Positions 12,354 to 59,800 of a DNA stretch of 64,000 bases are shown here, piece by piece. Where the stretch lies: positions 13,587-77,586 of the forward strand of contig DATKVB010000009.1 of the NCBI GenBank assembly GCA_035530295.1. The letters run 5' to 3'. The stretch comes from a bacterium. Its GTDB lineage: Bacteria > Spirochaetota > Spirochaetia > Treponematales > UBA12059. The position numbers and the translations under genes were made by a program. Within the stretch, counting starts at the first letter, position 1. Every line of letters starts with the position of its first letter. A model generated the notes under the pieces. It saw nothing but the letters and a program-made list of their open reading frames with translations. It ran no database searches and was not told the origin of the DNA.

Positions 12354-13616
12354 ATGAAGAGAAAGCCCGGACTGCTACTCTGTTTTGTCCTCATGGTATG
12401 CGCCCGGGTTGGTGCCCAGGGGGTATTCCCCAGCGCCTACGACCTCGTCTACAGTCTGTTCTCGCTTCAGGATCCCAACGCCGGCCTGACAACCTTCCTG
12501 TCGGCCCTGATACCGGTCGGCGGCAGTGCCGAAAGCATGGGCATGGCCTTTACCGCGGTGGCTGACGACGCCTCGTTCCTGGATCTCAATCCCTCTGCCA
12601 GCGCCGTGCAGGATCAGACCCAGTTTGCCTTCTACCACAACAACTGGATAGCCGATACCCGCATCGAAGGCATAGCGTACACGATGCGGCTCGGGACGAT
12701 CGGCCTGTCCTTGGGCGGCAAGTGGCTGTACTTGCCCTTTACCGAATATTCCGATTTCGCAGAGCGTCTGACCACCGGCTACTATTCGGAGGCGATTGGC
12801 ATTGCCAACGCATCCATACACCTCTGGCCTGGCTACTACTTCTATGGCGTGGCTCTGGGCGCCAACCTCAAGCTGGCATACCGGTCGATGCCTGACTTCT
12901 CCGATGACGCGGGCACGATCATAGCCGGGTCCGGTGCCAGCCAATCGGCTGTCGCTGTCATGGCCGACATAGGCGCGCTGACTCGGTTCAACATTGCCAA
13001 ATTGTACTCCTCCAGGAGCAAGAACTTTGCCGTGGGCCTGGCCCTGAAGAACTTCGGGCCGCCGGTTATGGGAGAGGCCCTGCCCACCGTAGCCACCGCC
13101 GGGGTAGCGTACAACTTCCTGAAGCCAATACTGATTTCAGGTGACATCAGCTTCCCCATCAACCTGGTCGATCCGTCGCTGAGCGAGCGGTTCTACTGGG
13201 GCGTTGGGTACCGGATGACCATAACGAACTTCTGGGATCTGCAGGCGGGGCTGCTGGTCAAGGGCGGCAACCCCAGGATCAGCGTCGGAGCCGCGCTCGA
13301 CTTCGCGCCACTGACGCTCGAGGTGAACTACACCCTCGACCTGACAACCCAGTTTTCTCCCCTCAACCGCATGAGCGTCGAGGCTCGTTTTGCCCTGGGA
13401 GACCTGGGGCGAGCCCAGAAGGCCGCCAAGGCGGAGGATCTGTACCTGCAGGGGCTCGACGCCTACGCAGCCGGCGACCTGGAACTGGCTATTTCATACT
13501 GGGATGAATCGCTTAAACTAAATCCATACTTCGATCCTGCGCGCGAGAATAGAGCTACCGCGCGCACCGCGCTTGAACTGAGAAAGCGCATACTCGAACT
13601 GCAGAAGCTCGAGTAG
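12354..13616 (+). CDS. outer-membrane beta-barrel protein (FadL/UPF0164-like) with C-terminal TPR extension
   Basis: 420-aa ORF with a signal peptide, the block SAESMGMAFTAVADDASFLDLNPSA and alternating beta-strand-like sequence. The C-terminus is TPR-like (AEDLYLQGLDAYAAGDLELAISYWDESLKLNPYF). Confidence 0.7.
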   Translation: MKRKPGLLLCFVLMVCARVGAQGVFPSAYDLVYSLFSLQDPNAGLTTFLSALIPVGGSAESMGMAFTAVADDASFLDLNPSASAVQDQTQFAFYHNNWIADTRIEGIAYTMRLGTIGLSLGGKWLYLPFTEYSDFAERLTTGYYSEAIGIANASIHLWPGYYFYGVALGANLKLAYRSMPDFSDDAGTIIAGSGASQSAVAVMADIGALTRFNIAKLYSSRSKNFAVGLALKNFGPPVMGEALPTVATAGVAYNFLKPILISGDISFPINLVDPSLSERFYWGVGYRMTITNFWDLQAGLLVKGGNPRISVGAALDFAPLTLEVNYTLDLTTQFSPLNRMSVEARFALGDLGRAQKAAKAEDLYLQGLDAYAAGDLELAISYWDESLKLNPYFDPARENRATARTALELRKRILELQKLE

Positions 13617-49366: not shown

Positions 49367-49653
49367 AGGACGGCTTTGACGCCGGGCAGCTGCCCTATGG
49401 CCTGGTATGTCGCGTACAGGCTCTCTTTGTCCTGAAATACGACCTTGCAGGCCAGCCTGCCATACTTCTCGCCGGTGGCTGGAAGTGATCTGACTGACTC
49501 CAGCGCCACGCCGCGCTCCGTCAACAGGGCGTCCAGATCGACCTGCAGGGTCGCTCCGGCGTCGCGCGCATAGATGACGCGCAGTTCGAACTCCACCGGG
49601 TATTCTATGCCTTCGACACCGGAAGGTTCTATGGAAACGGTCTCATCAGCCAT
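49363..49653 (-). CDS. DUF493 (YbeD-like) family protein
   Basis: 96-aa ORF with the YbeD-like pattern YPVEFELRVI ... GEKYGRLACKVVF ... VKAVL. 4-nt overlaps link it to both neighbouring genes. Confidence 0.55.
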   Translation of the reverse strand: MADETVSIEPSGVEGIEYPVEFELRVIYARDAGATLQVDLDALLTERGVALESVRSLPATGEKYGRLACKVVFQDKESLYATYQAIGQLPGVKAVL

Positions 49654-51190
49654 TGTTGCCTCGCTCCGTCCGCTGCCGGGATTGCTGTCGATCGCGCAGC
49701 GGCGAACGCCTGGAAGCGGTTTCTTGATATGAAAGGATGTCCTGCTCCACAGAGCTTCTATACGACAGCAGCTCGAGCAGGATGGGTTTGTCTTCGGCCG
49801 CGGTGTCCAGGTTTGACAGCAACGATTCGACTGTCTTGGAGAAACCGGCTAGATCGGTGGCGCCTTCTATACGCGGACACAAGAGACGGCTGGCGCAGAA
49901 CGATCGCCAGCGGGCCAGTTCCGGCGCGGACAGGGTCTGCGGCCAGTTTCTGGCAAAGAGCCGCCTCACGAGCTGGGGCAGTCGCTCGTCCAGGAACGGC
50001 ATGGCATAGGCGTGGGGTCGCGCCTCCGCCGGGCCCAGTGTCGCTATCGATTCATGGACTGCCGCCATCGCGTCCTTGTCCTCGTCGCGGAAAAACCCGC
50101 CGGAGTATATCCGATATTCGGGGTCGGGCTCCACCGCGTCCGGCGGAGGCGGAGCAAAGACCGCCTGCAGTTTCTGTATCAGCTCGGGTTCGCGTTCCAG
50201 GCTCCGCGCCCGCTGCGTGGCAAGTTCCGGATCGAGGCCGAGCCTGTCGGCGGCCTTGGCGTCCATGGTCGAAAGCGGCGCCAGGAATGGACAGCGTCCA
50301 AGCCTGATGTCGATGAGCGGTATGCGTTCGCCGTCGTCAAGCTCGGCCTTGCGGGAGAACACGCGGCGGCGAATCTCGTCGACCGGCAGGTCGAGGAGGG
50401 GCGAGGGGTCATAGCGGAGGTCTATCGCGACGAGGCCATCGCGCCTGCCCGGTACCATGCCCACCGGCGCCACAATGGTCGTGCAGCCGCGAGCGCTGGT
50501 GTACTGGGCCGCGGTATGCACGAGTGGCTCCCGGTTGGCGAGGTTGACGAGTGGCCTGAGCGAGTCGCGCGTCCTGTGTTTCCAGTACCAGTCATAGAGC
50601 CGAGGCTGCACCTGTCGAACCAGCCTGGCCAGGCCTACGGTCGCCGCTATGTCATGGAAGGCGTCGTGCGCCGATTCAAGCGCAATGTCATTGGCCGCAG
50701 CCAGGCTGCCCAGCCTGAAGTCGGGCTTGCCATCCTGCCCGTCAGGCCACGACAGGTCGTCGGGACGCAGGTCCCTCATGGCGCGAAACAGATCGATTAC
50801 GTCCCAGCGGGTATTGCCATCGGCCCATTCGCGTTCGTACGGATCGAACAGGTTGCGGTACAGCATATTGCGTATGAACTCGTCGTCAAAGCGGATGGAG
50901 TTGTATCCGGCCACGCAGGTGCCCGGAGCCAGCATCTCGTTTCTGATGGCTTTCGCAAACTCGTATTCGGGCAGACCCTTCTCAATCGTCTCGGCGGGCG
51001 TTATGCCGTGAACGAGGCATGAATAGGGGCTGGGTAGGTAGTCAGCGGTTATCTTGCTGTACAGTACGACACGATCGGCTACAGGTTCCAGGTTCTCGTC
51101 GGTTCTGAGACCGGCAAACTGGGCTATTCTGTCGTGCCGTGGATCGAGGCCAAATGTTTCAAGATCGTACCAGAGTATGCTCGAGCCCAT
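49646..51190 (-). CDS. sbcB: exodeoxyribonuclease I
   Basis: Start MGSSILWYDLETFGLDPRHDRIAQFAGLRTD at 51190 and colinear with E. coli SbcB (YNSIRFDDEFIRN, AHDAFHD). Confidence 0.85.
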   Translation of the reverse strand: MGSSILWYDLETFGLDPRHDRIAQFAGLRTDENLEPVADRVVLYSKITADYLPSPYSCLVHGITPAETIEKGLPEYEFAKAIRNEMLAPGTCVAGYNSIRFDDEFIRNMLYRNLFDPYEREWADGNTRWDVIDLFRAMRDLRPDDLSWPDGQDGKPDFRLGSLAAANDIALESAHDAFHDIAATVGLARLVRQVQPRLYDWYWKHRTRDSLRPLVNLANREPLVHTAAQYTSARGCTTIVAPVGMVPGRRDGLVAIDLRYDPSPLLDLPVDEIRRRVFSRKAELDDGERIPLIDIRLGRCPFLAPLSTMDAKAADRLGLDPELATQRARSLEREPELIQKLQAVFAPPPPDAVEPDPEYRIYSGGFFRDEDKDAMAAVHESIATLGPAEARPHAYAMPFLDERLPQLVRRLFARNWPQTLSAPELARWRSFCASRLLCPRIEGATDLAGFSKTVESLLSNLDTAAEDKPILLELLSYRSSVEQDILSYQETASRRSPLRDRQQSRQRTERGNNG

Positions 51191-51234
51191 TGTGTCAGTA
51201 TACTCCGCGTGTGGCCCGAGCGTGAAGTGATGCC

Positions 51235-51277
51235 TTGACACTAGCCTGTCGTATCGATAATCGTTATCGTTACGATT
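51235..51277 (+). promoter_or_regulatory. promoter-like elements plus Fur-box-like operator upstream of the fur-family gene
   Basis: TTGACA (51235-51240) and GATAAT (51256-51261) are separated by a 15-nt spacer. They are overlapped by GATAATCGTTATCGTTACGATT, which contains the inverted repeat AATCGT-N7-ACGATT (51259-51277). Confidence 0.35.
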
Positions 51278-51300
51278 GCCCGCTGGCTGCGGTGGAGGTT

Positions 51301-51738
51301 GTGGTGAACGACGATGAACGCGCGGCTCTTGAGCGATACCTGAAGGCGCGCGGACTCAAGATGACACACGCCAGGAGAACCGTTCTTGAGGCCTTTCTGG
51401 GACTCGAGTCACATGTCAGCGCCGAGGCGGTGTTCGAGGCGGCCAGGCTCATCGATCCTGGCATCGGTCAGGCCACCGTATTCCGCACCATCAAGCTGCT
51501 GTCAGACGCGGGCTTGGCCAGGGAAGCCAGCCGTGACGACGCGGCACGGCTGTACGAGCATGCCTTCAACCACGCCCACCACGACCACCTGACATGCGTG
51601 CGCTGTGGAGCTGTCGTGGAGTTTATCGACGCGGACATAGAGCGCGCGCAGGATGGTGTCTACAGGCGCTTCGGCTTCGTGTCGAGCGGGCATCGGCTTG
51701 AGCTGTACGGCCTGTGTCCCGACTGCCAGAAATCATGA
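51301..51738 (+). CDS. Fur-family metalloregulator
   Basis: Contains HARRTVLEAF, ATVFRTIKLL, HHDHLTCVRCG and the C-terminal CPDC. GTG start at 51301 or 51304 after GGTGGAGG; the exact start is uncertain. Confidence 0.75.
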   Translation: MVNDDERAALERYLKARGLKMTHARRTVLEAFLGLESHVSAEAVFEAARLIDPGIGQATVFRTIKLLSDAGLAREASRDDAARLYEHAFNHAHHDHLTCVRCGAVVEFIDADIERAQDGVYRRFGFVSSGHRLELYGLCPDCQKS

Positions 51739-51751
51739 GTGGCTCAAGCGA

Positions 51752-52501
51752 CTAGCGATCCCCCGCGTCCACATGAAATCGTCCCCGCCCTTGCCTTCTC
51801 GCCTCGATGATGGCCGCTCGGGCTCGCTTCAGGATTTCTGGCCCTTCGCTGGGTTTGCCGACGGCCGCGCCGACCGCTCCACCTATCCATATCGTCTGCG
51901 AGTCTAGCTCGACCGGCCTGCACAGCGTCTCGACGAGCTGGCCGGAGCGCTCCTCCGCCGTCTCAAGCGCCCTGGCGGGCACAACCGTCGCTATGGCGGC
52001 AAAATCATCATCGCCGGTACGCGCGGCTATGCCGTCGGAGCCGGCGAATGTCGAGACACGCTTGGCAACCTCGACCAGCACCGTATCCGACACCGATTTG
52101 CCGTATCGTCGCTCTATCTCGTCGAAGTTGTCGAGGTCGGCGCTCATAACAATGATGCTCTTGCCTTCCTGCGCAATCAGGCCAGCTTTCTCGGCCAGCC
52201 ACGCGGCCAGGCCGTTTGCATTGGCAAGTCCGGTCAGCTCGTCGATCCTGTCAGATGGTATGGGTTCATCACTCGACCTGGCTGCCGACAAGACGGGCGC
52301 GGCCGCCACCGACAGGCTCAGCCGCCCTATCCGCATGAGCAGAGCCGCAAGCCCTCCCGCGACAACGATTCCGCCCAAGGCACCCGGAGCTCCGCCAATT
52401 GCCGCGCCGACCGCTCCAATCAGGGCCGATGCGGATGCGACCAGGGCCGCCATCATGATGGCCCCGGAGTAACCCGAAATGCTTGATCTTTGTGTGCTCA
52501 T
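51752..52501 (-). CDS. membrane-anchored GGDEF-domain protein with degenerate active site
   Basis: N-terminal TM helices and the block DELTGLANANGL. The signature reads RTGDDDF where RxGG(D/E)EF is expected. Confidence 0.7.
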   Translation of the reverse strand: MSTQRSSISGYSGAIMMAALVASASALIGAVGAAIGGAPGALGGIVVAGGLAALLMRIGRLSLSVAAAPVLSAARSSDEPIPSDRIDELTGLANANGLAAWLAEKAGLIAQEGKSIIVMSADLDNFDEIERRYGKSVSDTVLVEVAKRVSTFAGSDGIAARTGDDDFAAIATVVPARALETAEERSGQLVETLCRPVELDSQTIWIGGAVGAAVGKPSEGPEILKRARAAIIEARRQGRGRFHVDAGDR

Positions 52502-52604: not shown

Positions 52605-53594
52605 ATGGCAAGCATGGAGCAAACATACAGAGCGCTCATACCCGATGCCATTCCTGTCGATAAGGGAAATGAGAAAGTGGGTATGGCTTCAAAAACAGGT
52701 TTCGCAGTTTCAGATTCGGATAGACGTCTCATCCGTGACAACGCGCACTACATCCGTGAGGCGCTGTTCTCGTGTATTACCGATACGCAGGTGGAATGCT
52801 CCGTCGCCTTTGCCCGGTACCTGGCGCGAGCTGGGTTGAACGCCGAGAACTACTGGCTGTTCCTGCGGCTCGTCATGACAAACAATCCGTGGGTGCTTGA
52901 CGAGCTGATGCACGAGCGAGAACCGCGCCTGCTGTTCTCGACCATTCTGCCCACAGAGGAACTCGTCGAGACCGCCTTCCAGGCTCTGTTCTCAAGGCAT
53001 CCAGACGAAATATACCCCAAGGCTCTCGAGGCTCTGCTTGGCATAGTCGAGAACGCCTACTTCGACCCTGATGATGGATACCGCCTCCGCAAGCTGTCGA
53101 TCATGGACATCAACGCACTGGGCAAGTTCCTCCGCAAGGACGAGCCCCAGGAACATCCCGTCAACCGCCTTATCCTTGAGATTCTTGACAAGCTGACCGG
53201 TCTTGGGGAGTACTTCCAGGAGCCTGACAAGAGCGTGTTGTCCAAGCATGCCTTCAATGTCCGGTTTGCCTATTTCGACAGGGCCAGGAACATGGTCGAC
53301 GCGATACCGCATCCGTTGCTGGTTCGGTTCGCCGACCGCAGTTCGGCCGACCCCGAATCGGACTATGCCGACCTGATAACCAAGCGGCGCGCGCGCAGGC
53401 GTGACGAACGCGGTCGCTTCATACGTGAATCGCAGCCGGATGCCGAGCCGACCATAGTTGCGCCAACAGCAGTTGAGCCAACCTTGGCCAAGGCACCAGT
53501 GATTGAGCGAGCGATAGTCGAGACCGCAGCAGTTGGGCCGCCGCCAGTTGAGCCGCAAGCGGCTCCCAAGCGAAAGAGAAAGAAGACGAGCTGA
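52605..53594 (+). CDS. unknown-family protein, paralog 1 of 4 (with Pro/Val/Glu-rich, basic C-terminal tail)
   Basis: Shares NYWLFLRL, IYPKAL, DGYRL, DINALGKFL, NRLILEILDKL and IPHPLLV with the ORFs at 55639, 56359 and 57142. An alternative start at 52683 would give paralog-like N-terminal spacing. Confidence 0.7.
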   Translation: MASMEQTYRALIPDAIPVDKGNEKVGMASKTGFAVSDSDRRLIRDNAHYIREALFSCITDTQVECSVAFARYLARAGLNAENYWLFLRLVMTNNPWVLDELMHEREPRLLFSTILPTEELVETAFQALFSRHPDEIYPKALEALLGIVENAYFDPDDGYRLRKLSIMDINALGKFLRKDEPQEHPVNRLILEILDKLTGLGEYFQEPDKSVLSKHAFNVRFAYFDRARNMVDAIPHPLLVRFADRSSADPESDYADLITKRRARRRDERGRFIRESQPDAEPTIVAPTAVEPTLAKAPVIERAIVETAAVGPPPVEPQAAPKRKRKKTS

Positions 53595-53649
53595 TTCCGG
53601 CCACAAAACATGAATGTCCGCATCGTGTCGAGCCGCAAGGAGGGTCCTC

Positions 53650-54621
53650 ATGGCGAGGAAGACTGACACCAGTATCATTCGGGCCCGGGAAAAGCCTGTG
53701 GACCCAGCGTCCATACCGCCCCACTCCGATGTCCTGCTGGTAGAGCGGGCGATAGACATAATAAAGGACGACGCCTGCAGGCCCCACGATTCGCGCGGGC
53801 AGCCGGGTGGACTCCTGTACCTGCCGGATGGGCTGCGGCCCATCATCGTGGGCGATCTGCATGCGTGCGTTGACCATCTCGGCAATATTCTTGATCACGA
53901 CAACAACAGGCGCGATATGGACGAGGGCCGCGCCTACCTGCTCTTCGTTGGCGACATTCTGCATGACGACCGTGTCGGCTACATGCGCGAGACTGCCAAC
54001 TCCATCCAGATACTCAACCAGGTGCTTACGCTGGTAGCCACCTGGCCAGGCAGGGTATTCTATATCCGTGGCAACCATGATACCTTCGACGAGCGCCTGA
54101 GGAAATCGGGCGTTGCCCAGGGAGCCGAATTCAAGAAGGCCCTTATCCAGATTACTGGCCAGGCCTTTACTGACGCGGTTGCCCGCTGGTTCGAGGCGCT
54201 GCCATATTTTGCCATCGGCGATAGCTTCGTCATCGTTCATGCGGGCCCTATACGGGGTGGCTGCACGCGGGAGGAAATCATAGACATCTGGAGGCGTCCC
54301 GACTACGCGATGCAATTCATGTGGAACCGCGTCAACGAGTTCCATGGCAACCCCAGCCCCAAGGAATATGGCGAGACCGATATCAGGATGACACTCGAGT
54401 CGCTTGGATTGCCGCCCTTGACCCACTTTATCGTCGGTCACAACCCACTCTGGAACGATGGTGGAACGACTGGCTTGTGGGAAAACGTGATTGGCATAAA
54501 GAATCACCACATCATCTATTCCGGTTCCGGGAGCAAGGCCCCCTACTATACGCTGGAAGGCGGGTTGCTCAAGGCCAAATTTTCCAAACCAGAGCGAGCG
54601 GAGGTGTATTACTATGGATGA
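53650..54621 (+). CDS. PPP-type metallophosphoesterase (Ser/Thr phosphatase-like)
   Basis: ATG at 53650 after AAGGAGGG. Ordered motifs are GDLHAC, GDILHD, GNHD, VHAG and GHNP. Confidence 0.8.
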   Translation: MARKTDTSIIRAREKPVDPASIPPHSDVLLVERAIDIIKDDACRPHDSRGQPGGLLYLPDGLRPIIVGDLHACVDHLGNILDHDNNRRDMDEGRAYLLFVGDILHDDRVGYMRETANSIQILNQVLTLVATWPGRVFYIRGNHDTFDERLRKSGVAQGAEFKKALIQITGQAFTDAVARWFEALPYFAIGDSFVIVHAGPIRGGCTREEIIDIWRRPDYAMQFMWNRVNEFHGNPSPKEYGETDIRMTLESLGLPPLTHFIVGHNPLWNDGGTTGLWENVIGIKNHHIIYSGSGSKAPYYTLEGGLLKAKFSKPERAEVYYYG

Positions 54622-55528
54622 ACGACAACGCATGCTCGCCGAGCTCGATGATCCGGAGCTGGCTTCATATTTCTACCTTGACAAGACCATGCCCGAGGTG
54701 TTGCGTTATCTCGATTCCCTGCAGCTGACGCTTGATCCGCTCGCAGACGACATGCCTTTCAACGCGGCCGTCAAGGGGTATGGTGGGGCCAAGGATATGC
54801 AGGGGCACCCATGGATTGTCAAACCTATAACCAACAAGCAGGACATTCTATACCACAGGCTATGCACGCTGGCGTACCTCCTGGACCATGCTACTGGCAC
54901 GCTCGCGGCGCCCACGGGCATCGCGAGCATCGACGGATCGGTGTACCGCATAACCAAGGTCGTGCGCAAATCAATACAGATCAGCTCGTACCCATACCTT
55001 GACCAGCCATACATCGGCATCATCAGGGCCGACCTGGTCAACCGCTGGCTGTACTTTGATGAAGACCGCAATCCCAACAACTATCTGGTTGTCCACAACC
55101 GCAAACAGCGCCCCTTTGTTGTCGCCATCGACTACGACAAGGCCGATCTGGCGTCTCCCGTAATGAAGATAACAGGCGACCAGCAGAAATTTGGGTGGTT
55201 CCGCAGTGAGAAGACCCGATTCCTGACCCTGCTCCGACCTACGCACTTCGATGGCATATCGATAGACGTGTTTGATGCCAGGCTCAAGGCCATATGCGGC
55301 ATCACCGAGGCCGAGTTGCGGAGTATCGTCCATCAGCTACTGGACGCCTATTCGGACGCGGCCTATGCCGATGCTATCGTGGCCAACCTGCTGGCCAGAC
55401 GTGCCTACATCGATGAGTATTTCAGGCGCATGTTCAAGTCAGCAGCCGAAACAACCGATTCCAGGCATGATGATGACTACGCCGCCTTCGGTGATAGCTT
55501 CAGAAACATGTATAAAGACAAGAATTGA
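54614..55528 (+). CDS. atypical kinase-like protein (PI3/4-kinase type II / HipA-like catalytic loop)
   Basis: 8-nt overlap with the phosphatase gene. Contains WIVKP (candidate Lys), FDEDRNPNNYLVV (DRxxxN-like catalytic loop) and VVAIDYDKAD (DFG-equivalent). The functional call is tentative. Confidence 0.5.
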   Translation: MDERQRMLAELDDPELASYFYLDKTMPEVLRYLDSLQLTLDPLADDMPFNAAVKGYGGAKDMQGHPWIVKPITNKQDILYHRLCTLAYLLDHATGTLAAPTGIASIDGSVYRITKVVRKSIQISSYPYLDQPYIGIIRADLVNRWLYFDEDRNPNNYLVVHNRKQRPFVVAIDYDKADLASPVMKITGDQQKFGWFRSEKTRFLTLLRPTHFDGISIDVFDARLKAICGITEAELRSIVHQLLDAYSDAAYADAIVANLLARRAYIDEYFRRMFKSAAETTDSRHDDDYAAFGDSFRNMYKDKN

Positions 55529-55558
55529 GCGCATTTTGATCGTAATACCAGCGATCAT

Positions 55559-55587
55559 TTGACAATTGGGATTTCGGGGATTAGAAT
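55559..55587 (+). promoter_or_regulatory. sigma-70-like promoter inside the paralog locus
   Basis: TTGACA, a 17-nt spacer, then TAGAAT. The -10 element is embedded in the hairpin GGGGAT-taga-ATCCCC. It lies 52 nt upstream of the ATG at 55639. Confidence 0.5.
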
Positions 55588-55638
55588 CCCCAGAGAATAT
55601 TGTAGAGAAATGATGCCTTTTTTCATTCGGAGGTCACG

Positions 55639-56337
55639 ATGGACAAACAGACTGAGAAGGTGATCGAGCGGACCTGGTCAAAAGAGACCATAATGCAGGT
55701 AGAACTCGGAATCCTCCAGAACATGCTCGGGTGTCGCACGGAAGAGGCTGTAGAGGCGGCGATCAGTTTTGCCCGTTTCCTCAGTATCTCTGGCTTGAGC
55801 AATGACAACTACCCGCTATTTCTCAAACTGCTCGAGGTTGAGAATCACTGGGTAATCGATACGATGGTAGCCGACAAGGATCCGTTCCTTCTCATCAGCC
55901 CCATCCAGTCGAACAGCTACTTGCTGTACACGGCATTCAAGTTGCTGACGAAGTGGCATCCGGGCGGAATCTACCCGGTAACGCTCTCTATCGTGCTTGG
56001 CATCCTGCAGGCCGCGTATGCGTCGCCAAAAGATGGCTACAAGATCTTCTCGGTATCGATCAATGACGTCAACAACCTTGGCAAGCACCTGAACAAGGAA
56101 AACGGGCAGGACGATCCAAACAATCGCTGCATCCTGGACATTCTCGACAGGCTGGGCTCTCTGGCTGGTACCTCTACCAACCCGGAGAAGGAGCAGATGT
56201 CACGGCAGGCCAACAGTATCCGTACCTTCTTCTTTGACAAGCGCAAGAAGATGGAAGATGTGATTCCGCAGGTTCTTCTCGTAAAGTCGGATTACATCGC
56301 CAAGGAAACCGCCCCCCGCCAGATTTTTGCTGACTAA
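55639..56337 (+). CDS. unknown-family protein, paralog 2 of 4
   Basis: 232 aa, RBS GGAGG. Shares NYPLFLKL, IYPVTL, DGYKI, DVNNLGKHL, NRCILDILDRL and IPQVLLV with the other paralogs. Confidence 0.75.
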   Translation: MDKQTEKVIERTWSKETIMQVELGILQNMLGCRTEEAVEAAISFARFLSISGLSNDNYPLFLKLLEVENHWVIDTMVADKDPFLLISPIQSNSYLLYTAFKLLTKWHPGGIYPVTLSIVLGILQAAYASPKDGYKIFSVSINDVNNLGKHLNKENGQDDPNNRCILDILDRLGSLAGTSTNPEKEQMSRQANSIRTFFFDKRKKMEDVIPQVLLVKSDYIAKETAPRQIFAD

Positions 56338-56358
56338 GGCCCATAAAGGAGCGTGGAT

Positions 56359-57069
56359 ATGAAAGAACTTTTCGAGAAGAAACAGGATTGGACCGACGAA
56401 GAAGTCGCGAATATAGAGTACAGCATGCTCAAGGGCATCATGGGCACACGCACGGAAGAAGCTGTCGAAGCCGCCATGACCTACGCGAGCTACCTCAACT
56501 TTACCGGAATAACCAACGGTAATTACCCGGTGTTCCTGAAGGCACTGATAACCAGGAACCACCATGTGATAGATGCTCTCCTGGGGACCAGGGATCCGTT
56601 CCTCTTCATGAGCTCCATCCAGCCCAATTACTTCATAGTCGCCTCGTGCTTCAGCATTCTGGCCAAGTACCGCAAGGGCGAGATCTATCCCAAGACACTC
56701 GGCATCATCCTTGGCGTCTTCCAGGCTACCTACAACTCGCCGCTTGATGGATACAAGATCTATCCGGCCACCGTCGCCGACGTGAACTGCCTTGGCAAGC
56801 ACCTCAATGAGGACAAGGGCCAGGATGATCTGCTCAACCGCTCCATCCTCGACATCCTTGACAAGATCTCTTCTCTCGAGGGGCAGAATGTGGACGAGGA
56901 CATGGAAGATCTGGCTGTGCATGCCCACAACATCCGCAACAATTTCTTCGACTCCACCAAACGGCTCGTTGACATCATCCCCGAAGTGTTGCTCCGCATA
57001 GAGCCGAACATGGACAAGGATGTTCAGCCGCGCAAGCGCGTTCCTCTCGAGGCTCCGGCCGCTAACTAA
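56359..57069 (+). CDS. unknown-family protein, paralog 3 of 4
   Basis: ATG at 56359 after AAAGGAG; the track start at 56353 is a GTG. Shares NYPVFLK, IYPKTL, DGYKI, DVNCLGKHL, NRSILDILDKI and IPEVLL. Confidence 0.75.
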   Translation: MKELFEKKQDWTDEEVANIEYSMLKGIMGTRTEEAVEAAMTYASYLNFTGITNGNYPVFLKALITRNHHVIDALLGTRDPFLFMSSIQPNYFIVASCFSILAKYRKGEIYPKTLGIILGVFQATYNSPLDGYKIYPATVADVNCLGKHLNEDKGQDDLLNRSILDILDKISSLEGQNVDEDMEDLAVHAHNIRNNFFDSTKRLVDIIPEVLLRIEPNMDKDVQPRKRVPLEAPAAN

Positions 57070-57141
57070 ATGGCAAAATGGCGGTAGCCGCTGGTCTCGT
57101 CGGAGACCACGGCACCGTCGGCCAGCAAGAGGAGGGATCGA

Positions 57142-57843
57142 ATGCTCGGAGAGGCGTGGCCCATGTGGTCCGAGGACGAGATAGACGCGCTGAAGCTCGG
57201 CTATCTGAATGATATTATCGAGTGCAATGACGGCTACGGCACCTTTGCCGCGTTGGCCTACGCACAGTACATGATCAGCAAGGTTGGCATTACCTCTGAT
57301 AATTACCCCATATACTTCCGTCTGATAGAGTCGGGAAACCGCTGGGTAGTCGATACCCTCGTCGGTGACCGCGATCCTTCAAAGTTCTTTGGCAGCATCC
57401 AGCCGAATACCTTCATGCTCAAGGAATGCTTCAGCATGCTGACCGCCTGGAAACCAGGTGAGGTGTATCCGAAGAGTCTGCAGATTCTGTACGGACTCCT
57501 GGTTCTGTGCTACGAGACGCCAGAGGAAGGCTATCGTCTGTACCCGCTTACCATTCCGGACGTAAACAATCTGGGCAAGCATCTGGACAAATCCAAGGAT
57601 CAGATGGATCCGCTCAATCGTATCGTATTGACGCTGCTCGACAGGCTGGCTGGGCTCATCGAGCCGCAGAAGCCGCTGCCGGCTCGGGAGATTCAGGATG
57701 TCGCGTTGCAGGCGAACAATATCCGGGGCAAGTTCCTTGATATGACCAAGCGCATGAATGAGGCTATCCCTGATATTATCCTGGTACGCGGCGATTACAC
57801 TGCCGCCGAGGTCAAACCAGCAATCCCTGAAATCAAGGTCTGA
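57142..57843 (+). CDS. unknown-family protein, paralog 4 of 4
   Basis: RBS GAGGAGGG. Shares NYPIYFRL, VYPKSL, EGYRL, DVNNLGKHL, NRIVLTLLDRL and IPDIILV. Confidence 0.75.
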   Translation: MLGEAWPMWSEDEIDALKLGYLNDIIECNDGYGTFAALAYAQYMISKVGITSDNYPIYFRLIESGNRWVVDTLVGDRDPSKFFGSIQPNTFMLKECFSMLTAWKPGEVYPKSLQILYGLLVLCYETPEEGYRLYPLTIPDVNNLGKHLDKSKDQMDPLNRIVLTLLDRLAGLIEPQKPLPAREIQDVALQANNIRGKFLDMTKRMNEAIPDIILVRGDYTAAEVKPAIPEIKV

Positions 57844-57943
57844 TGACTGATCCGGTGCGGTCCATACGGGCCGCACCGACGTGATCCGCACAACGATCGC
57901 GGCCATGCACTTGAAAAATCTGCCGACAACGGAGCGTTGAGGC

Positions 57944-59800
57944 TTGTCATCGGGCACAGTACTGCGCGAACGCGCCATCATCAATGATTGCTACATACTC
58001 CGTGAGCGCGTTGGCCATGATGCCTACTGCGAAATATGGCGTGCCAGCGCACTCTTCTCTGCCACGAACTTCCTGGTTCGATTCATCGACGCCAACATCC
58101 CCGTTGAATATTGCGAGGCCGAGCGGCGACTGATCATGGATGCCTATGACGTCCGCCACGCGGCGATTCTCGATGTAGTCGAGGTCGACCGCTTCGGGAC
58201 GCTGATGTTTATATCATCGGAATACAGCGCACTGGTAACGCTCGAGCAGGCCTTGTCGGGCGGCATAACCTTCTCACTCGATCACATCTGCGGCTTTGCG
58301 CTTGAGCTTTCCCAGGCGCTGGACATGTTCAACCGCCGTGGGCTTGTCTATGGCACCGTGAACATGCAGGCTATATTTGTATCATTGGAGCAGGGCATCG
58401 TGACCGAACTCAAGCTCCTGAAGCCGGGGTATCTCCCGCTGGTCGGTTCGGCGAGCAAGCTTGATCCTGATGCGATGCGCTGCAACTATGGCTTCATGGC
58501 GCCTGAATGCAAGGGCGGCGCATTGACAAGAGCCGATCAGCGGGCTGATGTATATTCTCTGGGCATCCTGCTCTACAGGCTTATAACAGGATCGATGCCA
58601 TTCCGCGGAACTCACGCCGGGCGTGCGCTGGACGCTCCTGTTTCGGTCCGGCACATATCCAATGCTTTGATACGCCGGGGCGTACCGCCGGCGCTGGCAA
58701 GGATCATCGTCACCTGTGTACGGACAAACCCGGCGTCGCGGTATCCAAACATGGTAGGGCTGATCCGGGAGCTGCGCATGTTCCTGGATGACAGGCGACT
58801 TGCTACGATAAAGCGAGGAGCCGCGGACCCACTCGCCGACCTGGAGAATTTGAACTCAACCAAATCGGCTGGTGGCGCGGAACAGGTGCTGCGCAAGCTT
58901 GATATGGCAGAATACTTTGGCGCGCTGTCCGAGGGCATAAGTATGGAGCCGGATTCCGACTCGGGGCAGCGATTTCCAACCGGAGTATCGCTCGGCGAGA
59001 CCAGGTCGGGTATGGCGGGCGAAGCCGAAGAAATCTCAGAGATGGGCGACACCGATATCGAGAGCATGAGCGCCCAGGACCATGTCGACGCAAGCCTGAG
59101 CCTTCTCGGGATATCGGTGTCCGCCCGCGCTACCGGAGCGACTGGCCGGCCGGTGGCCACCGGGAACGCCGCGCTCCTGTCCGCCACCCTGGATGCATCC
59201 GCTGCGGAGACAGGGCCAGGGCCAGTACCCGGGGCGGCCTCCGAAGGCATGGTATCGATGTCCTCTGCAACCGGCCACCGTGTACTGTGGAGCCATGTGC
59301 GCATTGACTCGGAGGAGCTTGCCGCTTCGCTCATTGAAGCGTGCGAATCAGCGCGGCACAAGCGTGGCGCGTTCCGCTATATACAGGAGCCAGCTGGAGA
59401 GCACGGCATGCGGTTGCTTTCTGACCTTGTGGAACGTATGCGGCAGTCGTACTTTGTGCTGGACATGTCGACGGGCAGCCATGGCCTCGATGAGTTTGTT
59501 CCGGCAATGCAAGCGGCTATTGCCATATCGCTGCGCGATGTCTCGCCGGGCATCAGGCGCAGGCTCAAGACTCGTTTCCCCGCGGTACTGCAGTCGATCG
59601 GAACATCGGCTGATCCTGGAGCCGCGGCGCTTGCGTGTGCCAGGATGGCAACGCGATCAAGACCATTGGTCCTGATGCTCCGCGTCGTCGCCCCGACGGA
59701 TGATGCCCTTGGAACATTCTTCGAGGCACTGGCCGCGATAGCCCACCATGAGCGGCTCTGCGTCTTTGCGTTTTTCTCCGGTGAGCCTCCGGTAGCCTGA
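57944..59800 (+). CDS. Hanks-type pseudokinase with long C-terminal region (possible degenerate P-loop NTPase module)
   Basis: The kinase fold is retained (YGFMAPE, DVYSLGILLYRLITGSMPF, NPASRYP). The VAIK Lys is replaced in LVRF, HRD-x4-N reads VYGTVNMQ and DFG reads KPG. TTG start; no in-frame ATG lies nearby. Confidence 0.65.
   Translation: MSSGTVLRERAIINDCYILRERVGHDAYCEIWRASALFSATNFLVRFIDANIPVEYCEAERRLIMDAYDVRHAAILDVVEVDRFGTLMFISSEYSALVTLEQALSGGITFSLDHICGFALELSQALDMFNRRGLVYGTVNMQAIFVSLEQGIVTELKLLKPGYLPLVGSASKLDPDAMRCNYGFMAPECKGGALTRADQRADVYSLGILLYRLITGSMPFRGTHAGRALDAPVSVRHISNALIRRGVPPALARIIVTCVRTNPASRYPNMVGLIRELRMFLDDRRLATIKRGAADPLADLENLNSTKSAGGAEQVLRKLDMAEYFGALSEGISMEPDSDSGQRFPTGVSLGETRSGMAGEAEEISEMGDTDIESMSAQDHVDASLSLLGISVSARATGATGRPVATGNAALLSATLDASAAETGPGPVPGAASEGMVSMSSATGHRVLWSHVRIDSEELAASLIEACESARHKRGAFRYIQEPAGEHGMRLLSDLVERMRQSYFVLDMSTGSHGLDEFVPAMQAAIAISLRDVSPGIRRRLKTRFPAVLQSIGTSADPGAAALACARMATRSRPLVLMLRVVAPTDDALGTFFEALAAIAHHERLCVFAFFSGEPPVA

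Follow-up and report, generated by a model that had tools for sequence, protein, structure and literature searches.

An overlapping gene pair for a PPP-like metallophosphatase and a predicted kinase-fold protein, conserved in Spirochaetota

We describe a pair of overlapping genes in a 64,000-nucleotide stretch of bacterial DNA (positions 13,587 to 77,586 of contig DATKVB010000009.1, assembly GCA_035530295.1, from a spirochaete of the order Treponematales), hereafter called the window. The first gene encodes a PPP-like metallophosphatase and the second a protein with a predicted kinase fold, which we named KinL. On the basis of gene structure, motif conservation, synteny, the family of the phosphatase and the predicted fold of KinL, we interpret the two as opposing enzymes that are inherited and expressed as one unit and form a reversible phosphorylation module, an interpretation to which we assign a probability of roughly 0.6. 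What is new here is a family within a known fold class, its unusual pairing with a PPP rather than a PP2C phosphatase, and the conserved context of both genes; nothing was found in the literature on this pair or its gene cluster in spirochaetes.

Gene structure, junction and distribution of the pair

The phosphatase gene lies at positions 53650–54621 of the + strand (323 amino acids, stop codon TGA at 54619–54621) and the KinL gene at 54614–55528 of the same strand (304 amino acids, start codon ATG at 54614). For the phosphatase, the start at 53650 (protein beginning MARK) was preferred over the longer open reading frame beginning at 53614 that a mechanical list of reading frames contains, because the orthologs are about 300–340 amino acids long, commonly 320–323, several of them begin with MAR[KS], and a Shine-Dalgarno-like sequence, AAGGAGGG (53637–53644, + strand), stands 5 nt ahead of the start codon. 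An initial annotation, made from the sequence of the window, had noted that the phosphatase stop overlaps the start of the following gene, and the overlap indeed amounts to 8 nt (ATGGATGA, 54614–54621, + strand), across which the phosphatase ends in YYG and KinL begins with MDE. KinL has a Shine-Dalgarno sequence of its own, GGAGG at 54600–54604 of the + strand, which is situated within the 3' end of the phosphatase gene, 9 nt ahead of the ATG; in close relatives with the same 8-nt overlap, a GGAGG-like sequence is likewise found about 7–9 nt 5' of the KinL start.

This arrangement is widely conserved. Among related loci, 81 junctions were compared: the ATGnnTGA overlap of 8 nt recurs in 52, and a further 12 overlap by 11–26 nt, so that the genes overlap in 64 of the 81; the other 17 junctions have a gap of 1–43 nt. 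A chance overlap of reading frames was rejected, as the overlap is kept in so many loci. The translational coupling that had been proposed for the pair is plausible and, judging from the junctions, would be conserved in the clade to which the window belongs. The overlap, combined with the strong Shine-Dalgarno sequence that KinL possesses, does not prove 1:1 stoichiometry; the initial annotation had taken the overlap to imply stoichiometric co-expression.

When one genome of each GTDB species was scanned, 109 species genomes proved to encode a KinL relative, and all 80 loci listed from these 109 species belong to metagenome-assembled genomes (MAGs) of Spirochaetota, the listed carriers including Treponematales, Rectinemataceae, Alkalispirochaeta, Marispirochaeta, Sediminispirochaeta and others. 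A short contig labelled Magnetospirillaceae that carries a KinL homolog is probably mis-binned. Every genome in which the pair was seen is an uncultured MAG, which limits its practical impact for now.

The phosphatase gene is found directly upstream of the KinL gene and in the same orientation in 80 of 82 related loci, which are all those holding upstream DNA; the two loci without a phosphatase match are L025, which is cut at a contig end, and L084. Over 80 loci, the identities of the phosphatase and of KinL to the copies in the window co-vary closely (r=0.91). The constant presence of the upstream phosphatase, the conservation of the junction and this correlation argue, at the level of gene order and sequence divergence, that the two genes are a co-inherited unit and the invariant core of the cluster in which they lie. 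The restriction to Spirochaetota, the conserved synteny and the divergence in step with neighbouring genes point to vertical inheritance rather than mobility. In the PADLOC collection of defence systems there was no match for the pair, and inspection of the window cluster revealed no mobile-element genes at its flanks; a mobile toxin-antitoxin or defence module was rejected on these grounds, together with the Spirochaetota-only distribution, synteny and co-divergence of the 80 listed loci.

The phosphatase and the predicted fold and active site of KinL

The initial annotation had attributed to the first protein a full and ordered set of metallophosphoesterase motifs, all of which are present: GDLHAC at residues 68–73, GDILHD at 101–106, GNHD at 141–144, VHAG at 196–199 and GHNP at 263–266. 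Their cores map to 53851–53862 (GDLH), 53950–53970 (GDILHDD), 54070–54081 (GNHD), 54238–54240 (His197) and 54436–54444 (GHN) of the + strand. The protein belongs to the Pfam family Metallophos (PF00149), with 41.4 bits against a cut-off of 21.5 and E=2.7e-10. In 75 distinct orthologs, GDLH 68–71, GD..H.D 101–107, GNHD 141–144, H197 and GHN 263–265 are at least 97% conserved, and an N-terminal PGGL motif is conserved equally well.

The closer affinity of the phosphatase was explored with a family profile built from 14 diverse orthologs and searched against the PDB. The profile matches PPP Ser/Thr phosphatases, namely BSU1 (1.1e-7) and PP5 (1.7e-4), followed by calcineurin and PP2A, with an alignment that covers the GDxH, GDxxD, GNH[DE] and HxG motifs, while an ApaH-like chain appears in the same search at 9e-4 only. 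In PHROGs, the protein matches the family of the NinI-like (lambda) Ser/Thr phosphatases at 5.8e-9, and in NCBIfam it has weak similarities to ApaH, Pnkp and PdeM, far under their cut-offs. By these profile matches, its closest affinity is with Ser/Thr protein phosphatases, nucleotide phosphoesterases and others being more remote, although every match to the PPP and NinI families is distant, and the sequence by itself obtained a best PDB match of only E=0.12. With those families it shares the ordered GDxH, GDxxD, GNH[DE], H and GH elements, and it differs from them in an extra residue within motif II (GDxxHxD versus GDxVDRG), in the Arg of that motif, which is not conserved, and in the invariant PGGL. 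The conserved motifs suggest an active PPP/lambda-like phosphatase, the target of which is most likely a phosphoprotein.

KinL could not be placed by primary sequence. The protein encoded in the window has no match in Pfam, NCBIfam, PADLOC or PHROGs, and none among PDB sequences by phmmer or by two profile searches. A Pfam search with 32 members of the family at E≤10 likewise produced no meaningful match, and none to HipA, PI3_PI4_kinase or Pkinase. The homologs form 248 clusters, nearly all with 304–306 amino acids, and the family is a narrow one, since an exhaustive hidden Markov model (HMM) search of 1.84 billion representative sequences returned 35 matches only, almost all of them fragments of the family itself. 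The sole match from outside the family is a domain in a 6078-residue metagenomic protein, P0149 (E=1.8e-6), which at residues ~2826–2949 reads GDMDRHGGNFLVV...VSVDH and which scores 23.4 bits (E=6.5e-5) against Pfam PI3_PI4_kinase (PF00454), under the cut-off of 27.1. KinL, P0149 and PI3_PI4_kinase are thus joined by a weak transitive sequence bridge; a homolog search with the P0149 domain, intended to broaden it, found zero matches. Elsewhere in P0149, two further stretches resemble, by eye, a Hanks kinase and an acetyltransferase.

The structural relationships of KinL were explored using an AlphaFold2 model based on a 32-sequence alignment, which has a mean predicted local distance difference test score (pLDDT) of 88 and a predicted template-modelling score (pTM) of 0.85, and which was compared with the PDB using Foldseek. 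All 28 matches at E≤1e-3 are proteins with a kinase fold, the pseudokinase domain of TYK2 among them. The best is CtkA (3akl, 3akj, 3akk), with E-values of 6.7e-5 to 3.5e-4 and template-modelling (TM) scores of 0.45–0.48 (0.47 for 3akl). The lipid kinase PI4KIIalpha follows, at TM 0.48 for 4hnd and 0.44–0.45 for 5eut and 5i0n, and then HipA (3tpv, 3dnu, 3tpd, 3dnv, 2wiu) at 0.35–0.43, with 0.40–0.43 for 3tpv and 3dnu. Small-molecule kinases such as LicA and NahK reach 0.25 only, and an APH/choline-kinase-type enzyme was rejected for that reason. Hanks kinases reach 0.25–0.33, with a root-mean-square deviation of 14–18 Å; these values, combined with the lack of a Pkinase match, led us to reject membership of KinL in the Hanks family as well. 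The structure paper on PI4KIIalpha reports CtkA and further protein kinases as its nearest structural analogues (PMC3974213), so that the CtkA, HipA and PI4KIIalpha matches form one coherent structural neighbourhood.

The predicted structure has the bilobal architecture of kinases, and its secondary structure elements match the order of a canonical kinase core. A strand at residues 66–71 that contains K70 is followed by a helix (75–93, with an invariant D91 near its end), strands 101–106 and 109–115, a linker and a helix at 133–146; the loop D149–Y157 (DEDRNPNNY) comes next and leads into strands 157–161 and 167–171 and then to I172–D173. The initial annotation had singled out WIVKP (residues 67–71), FDEDRNPNNYLVV (148–160) and VVAIDYDKAD (169–178) as a putative lysine, catalytic loop and DFG-equivalent, and all three segments are present, with Lys70 encoded at 54821–54823, the loop at 55058–55084 and I172–D173...D178 at 55127–55147 of the + strand. 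Positions that are at least 97% conserved among 79 distinct orthologs, down to 34% identity, comprise K70, D91, D140, N143–W145, D149–Y157, I172–D173 and D178, so that the proposed Lys, D-x4-N loop and DFG-type Asp are all retained, and their order along the secondary structure elements is the canonical one. Neither of the outcomes that the initial annotation had named as counting against its proposal, a non-kinase fold or a loss of the candidate catalytic residues in homologs, was found.

According to the model, ATP would be positioned by Lys70, which stands at the end of a β-strand with a long helix next to it; the loop after helix 133–146 would supply, in Asp151 and Asn156, the catalytic base and a Mg ligand; and Asp173, right after strand 167–171, would be the DFG-type Mg ligand. 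K70, D151, N156 and D173 are the obvious targets for mutation. The spacing of these residues is close to that of HipA: D151 to N156 and N156 to D173 span 5 and 17 residues, versus 5 and 18 for D309, N314 and D332 of HipA. A profile-profile comparison (hhalign) of KinL with nine HipA sequences from plasmid loci was not significant (E=0.2, probability <1%), and the sole stretch that it aligned places DEDRNPNNY on the HipA segment ATDGHAKNF, with D151 on D309 and N156 on N314; the same comparison with the single E. coli HipA gave a spurious 12-column match only. KinL had been described as lacking Hanks motifs, which agrees with the lack of any Pkinase match, yet its loop D-R-N-P-N-N keeps the D-x-x-P-x-N spacing of the Hanks D-L-K-P-x-N, nothing else of the Hanks motifs being kept.

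These data suggest that KinL is a protein of the protein-kinase-like (PKL) fold in the branch of CtkA, HipA and PI4KII, a branch that joins bacterial toxin kinases to eukaryotic lipid kinases. The kinship with PI4-kinase type II and HipA-like kinases proposed in the initial annotation thus holds for the fold and the active site, and does not extend to sequence membership: by profile searches, KinL is no member of HipA_C, PI3_PI4_kinase or Pkinase. It represents a bacterial kinase-fold family that has no Pfam or NCBIfam model and that the sequence searches used here missed.

Comparison with the three reference proteins is instructive as to what KinL shares with each. CtkA (JHP0940; 3AKJ, 3AKK, 3AKL), a pro-inflammatory Ser/Thr kinase of Helicobacter pylori and the best fold match (probability 1.00 over ~290 columns), is also a small, single-domain, atypical bacterial kinase core, of which ~280–300 residues are resolved, without Hanks motifs; the identity to KinL is ~10% only, with no relation at the sequence level. 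CtkA is encoded on the mobile integrative and conjugative element tfs3 and acts on host cells (PMC5536186), whereas KinL is encoded on the chromosome of free-living spirochaetes, in which it seems to be inherited vertically, and its gene always follows that of a phosphatase. HipA resembles KinL in fold (TM 0.40–0.43, probability 1.00), in the overlap of its gene with that of an upstream antagonist and in the layout of the active site, where IIKLP, DGHAKN and a downstream YD in HipA correspond to WIVKP, DRNPNN and ID in KinL. Unlike HipA, KinL has no Pfam HipA match, no significant profile-profile alignment, no patchy or mobile distribution and no N-terminal HipA domain (304 versus 440 amino acids, with ~50 residues ahead of the first core strands and no alignable N-terminal region), and the gene upstream encodes a metallophosphatase instead of a HipB-type helix-turn-helix (HTH) protein; in the annotated HipA loci of E. 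coli and plasmids, an HTH gene precedes the match or stands at its 5' edge. PI4KIIalpha (4HND, 5EUT, 5I0N) shares with KinL the fold (TM 0.44–0.48), a DR-x3-N catalytic loop and an (A/I)ID Mg-binding motif. KinL differs from it in being bacterial, in not matching its Pfam model, in having a partner of the protein phosphatase type and in lacking the PI4KII insertions, including the CCPCC palmitoylation motif, no Cys-rich motif being present in the 304-residue sequence.

Function of the pair and alternative explanations

In bacteria, Ser/Thr kinase and phosphatase genes such as PrkC/PrpC and PknB/PstP are adjacent and co-oriented, often overlap and have the phosphatase first, the usual combination being a Hanks kinase with a PP2C (PPM) phosphatase. 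The pair described here has the same gene arrangement, with the phosphatase leading. It differs in its enzymes, an atypical CtkA/HipA/PI4KII-like kinase and a PPP/lambda-type metallophosphatase, and in that the Hanks protein of its cluster is catalytically dead. In the mechanism that we favour, the phosphatase would be translated first and, as KinL starts within the phosphatase stop region with its own Shine-Dalgarno sequence, the kinase would probably never be made without its antagonist. KinL would transfer phosphate by means of K70, D151, N156 and D173, and the PPP-like enzyme would remove it. The likeliest chemistry would be reversible Ser/Thr phosphorylation of a protein target within a spirochaete-specific module that comprises four helical paralogs (here termed parA to parD), a Hanks pseudokinase and a degenerate GGDEF protein. 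We infer a protein rather than a lipid substrate from the CtkA and HipA matches, the PPP/lambda-type partner and the pseudokinase neighbour. The initial annotation had pointed to the paralogs as the shared substrate; they, the pseudokinase and KinL itself are candidates.

Several observations weigh against this interpretation. Sequence methods assign KinL to no kinase family, its structural matches are modest (TM 0.40–0.48, with E-values of ~1e-4), and a recognisable Gly-rich GxGxxG loop was not identified. ApaH and Pnkp, to which the phosphatase has weak NCBIfam matches, are metallophosphatases of the same class, and PI4KIIalpha is a lipid kinase, which leaves some room for a non-protein substrate. 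The three short paralogs parB, parC and parD are under a conserved promoter of their own. Finally, the deepest clade of the family, at 34–37% identity, carries the pair without a nearby paralog, pseudokinase or GGDEF match; at L078, the sole locus of that clade that was checked, it sits amid housekeeping genes of isoprenoid and haem biosynthesis. The association of the pair with the paralogs thus appears strong, yet it is not obligatory at the level of the locus.

Alternatives were considered, one of which is that KinL phosphorylates a lipid head group, a metabolite or a nucleotide and that the phosphatase reverses the reaction or hydrolyses its product, with no protein substrate involved. Such a role would agree with PI4KIIalpha tying for the top TM-score, with the P0149 bridge as the sole sequence link, with the ApaH and Pnkp similarities and with the solitary pair amid biosynthesis genes at L078. 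We nevertheless consider it unlikely: the best and most numerous fold matches of KinL are the protein kinases CtkA and HipA, with LicA and NahK far behind and the PI4KII palmitoylation insertion missing, the phosphatase profile is far nearer to PPP protein phosphatases than to nucleotide hydrolases and has the lambda/NinI-type match, and the genes that usually surround the pair encode a pseudokinase and soluble helical proteins. The chances are slimmer that KinL has a kinase fold without phosphotransfer, serving as a scaffold or pseudokinase or catalysing some other ATP-dependent reaction (AMPylation or glutamylation, of the SelO or SidJ type), with the phosphatase acting elsewhere. Few positions of KinL are as well conserved as the Lys, the D-x4-N motif and the DFG-type Asp, the opposite of what is seen in the adjacent pseudokinase, and the obligatory pairing with a phosphatase fits a phosphoryl product. 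Lending that idea some credit are the failure of sequence searches to place KinL in any kinase family, the lack of a recognisable canonical Gly-rich loop and the fact that the same cluster already contains, in the Hanks protein, one kinase fold without catalytic residues.

The gene order also recalls toxin-antidote systems, in that an antagonist-first, kinase-second arrangement with overlapping codons is invariant here and mirrors the hipB-hipA loci of E. coli and of annotated plasmids; given the HipA/CtkA-like fold, KinL could be a growth-arresting kinase of the HipA type, and the phosphatase, translated first, an antidote that replaces HipB. Of the explanations considered this is very improbable. 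A canonical HipBA toxin-antitoxin system was rejected, there being no HipB or other HTH antitoxin, no HipA N-terminal domain and an apparently vertical inheritance. Confinement to Spirochaetota and divergence in step with the neighbours fit such inheritance, no PADLOC match and no flanking mobile-element genes were found, and the pair is embedded in a conserved chromosomal cluster of eight genes.

Conserved neighbours of the pair

The usual order of that cluster is a divergent GGDEF gene, parA, the phosphatase gene, the KinL gene, parB, parC, parD and the gene of the Hanks protein. In the window, parA (52605–53594, + strand, 329 amino acids) is located directly upstream of the phosphatase gene and encodes the helical paralog domain followed by a Pro/Ala-rich basic C-terminal tail; across loci the protein has ~330–350 amino acids, and its place upstream of the phosphatase is kept in most of them. 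The short paralogs parB (55639–56337), parC (56353–57069) and parD (57142–57843), all on the + strand, are tandem genes for all-alpha proteins of 232–239 amino acids each. The identity of ParA to the short paralogs is 39%, 33% and 33%, and the four range from 33 to 44% identity among themselves. An AlphaFold2 model of a paralog is all-helical (pLDDT 75), and a fold search against the PDB found nothing significant, only generic helical-repeat or 14-3-3-like noise at TM <0.35. With 1324 homolog clusters, parB is 72–100% identical across Spirochaetia and far better conserved than the adjacent enzymes, KinL being 41–78% identical over the same loci; a constraint at the level of parB is typical of structural or multi-partner proteins.

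Between the KinL gene and parB lies a sigma70-like promoter, TTGACA-17-TAGAAT (55559–55587, + strand), with 11 of 12 positions in agreement. Of 39 distinct orthologous spacers, 35 carry the motif TTGAC-N17-19-TAnnnT, compared with 0.19 expected from shuffled sequences; it lies 43–95 nt ahead of the parB start codon, and within 43–73 nt in 34 of the 35. Because of this conserved sigma70-like promoter, the short paralogs are a separate, and probably stronger, transcription unit. In Spirochaetales-type loci, parBCD is inverted or several kb off; across Spirochaetales-type and deeper lineages it lies on the opposite strand 0.1–3 kb downstream of the KinL gene in L041, L047, L050–L056, L059–L069, L072 and L074–L076. 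The clade of L074–L076 and L081 has five paralogs. A single lineage shows a tandem duplication of the triplet, with parBCD occurring twice in the order parBCD, pseudokinase, GGDEF, parA, phosphatase, KinL, parBCD (L022, L023, L026, which equals L001, and L058); three of these loci (L022, L023 and L026) lie on chromosomes that are complete or nearly so, and in L001 a fragment of an insertion sequence (IS)/DDE transposase follows the second parBCD copy.

The Hanks-type protein (57944–59800, + strand, 618 amino acids; ~620–700 across loci) matches Pfam Pkinase at E=1.1e-11 and has lost the catalytic residues of that family. In an alignment with PknB of S. aureus, Arg stands in place of the VAIK Lys, YGT in place of HRD, Ala in place of the catalytic-loop Asn and KPG in place of DFG, and the same degenerate motifs are seen in 48 orthologs, with YG[TCN] at the HRD position. 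Its C-terminal half of ~300 residues has no family match and, when tested against the paralogs, no relation to them. The divergent gene at 51752–52501 (− strand) encodes a membrane-anchored GGDEF protein, the family being recognised by Pfam on orthologs, with the degenerate active-site motif RTGDDDF; orthologs have SGDEF, NGDEF, EGDEF, GTDEF or GGDDF, and the protein is perhaps a cyclase without activity, or else an effector that binds nucleotides.

These conserved neighbours, namely the four paralogs, the pseudokinase and the degenerate GGDEF protein, provide a short list of candidate substrates or partners, and, if the pair is regulatory, the module would be an unstudied piece of spirochaete cell biology. 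A broader scenario can be outlined, tentative and on balance rather doubtful, in which the pair is the enzymatic core of an undescribed, spirochaete-specific system controlled by phosphorylation. In this scenario, the paralogs would come together in a heteromeric assembly of a structural or cytoskeleton-like kind, whose state is set by KinL and the phosphatase, the dead Hanks kinase would be a scaffold or receptor, and the degenerate GGDEF protein would be the link to the membrane or to nucleotide signalling.

Some further features of the region were noted. The GC content over window positions 54001–58000, from KinL to parBCD, is 0.54, compared with ~0.59–0.63 in most of the window, a drop that may reflect either the codon usage typical of strongly expressed genes or the history of the segment. 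Beyond the GGDEF gene, a reading frame of 531 amino acids at 49646–51241 (− strand) looks by eye like an exonuclease I-type DEDD nuclease (WYDLETFG...), and one of 167 amino acids at 51235–51738 (+ strand) has the look of a Fur-family regulator (HHDHLxCxxCG).

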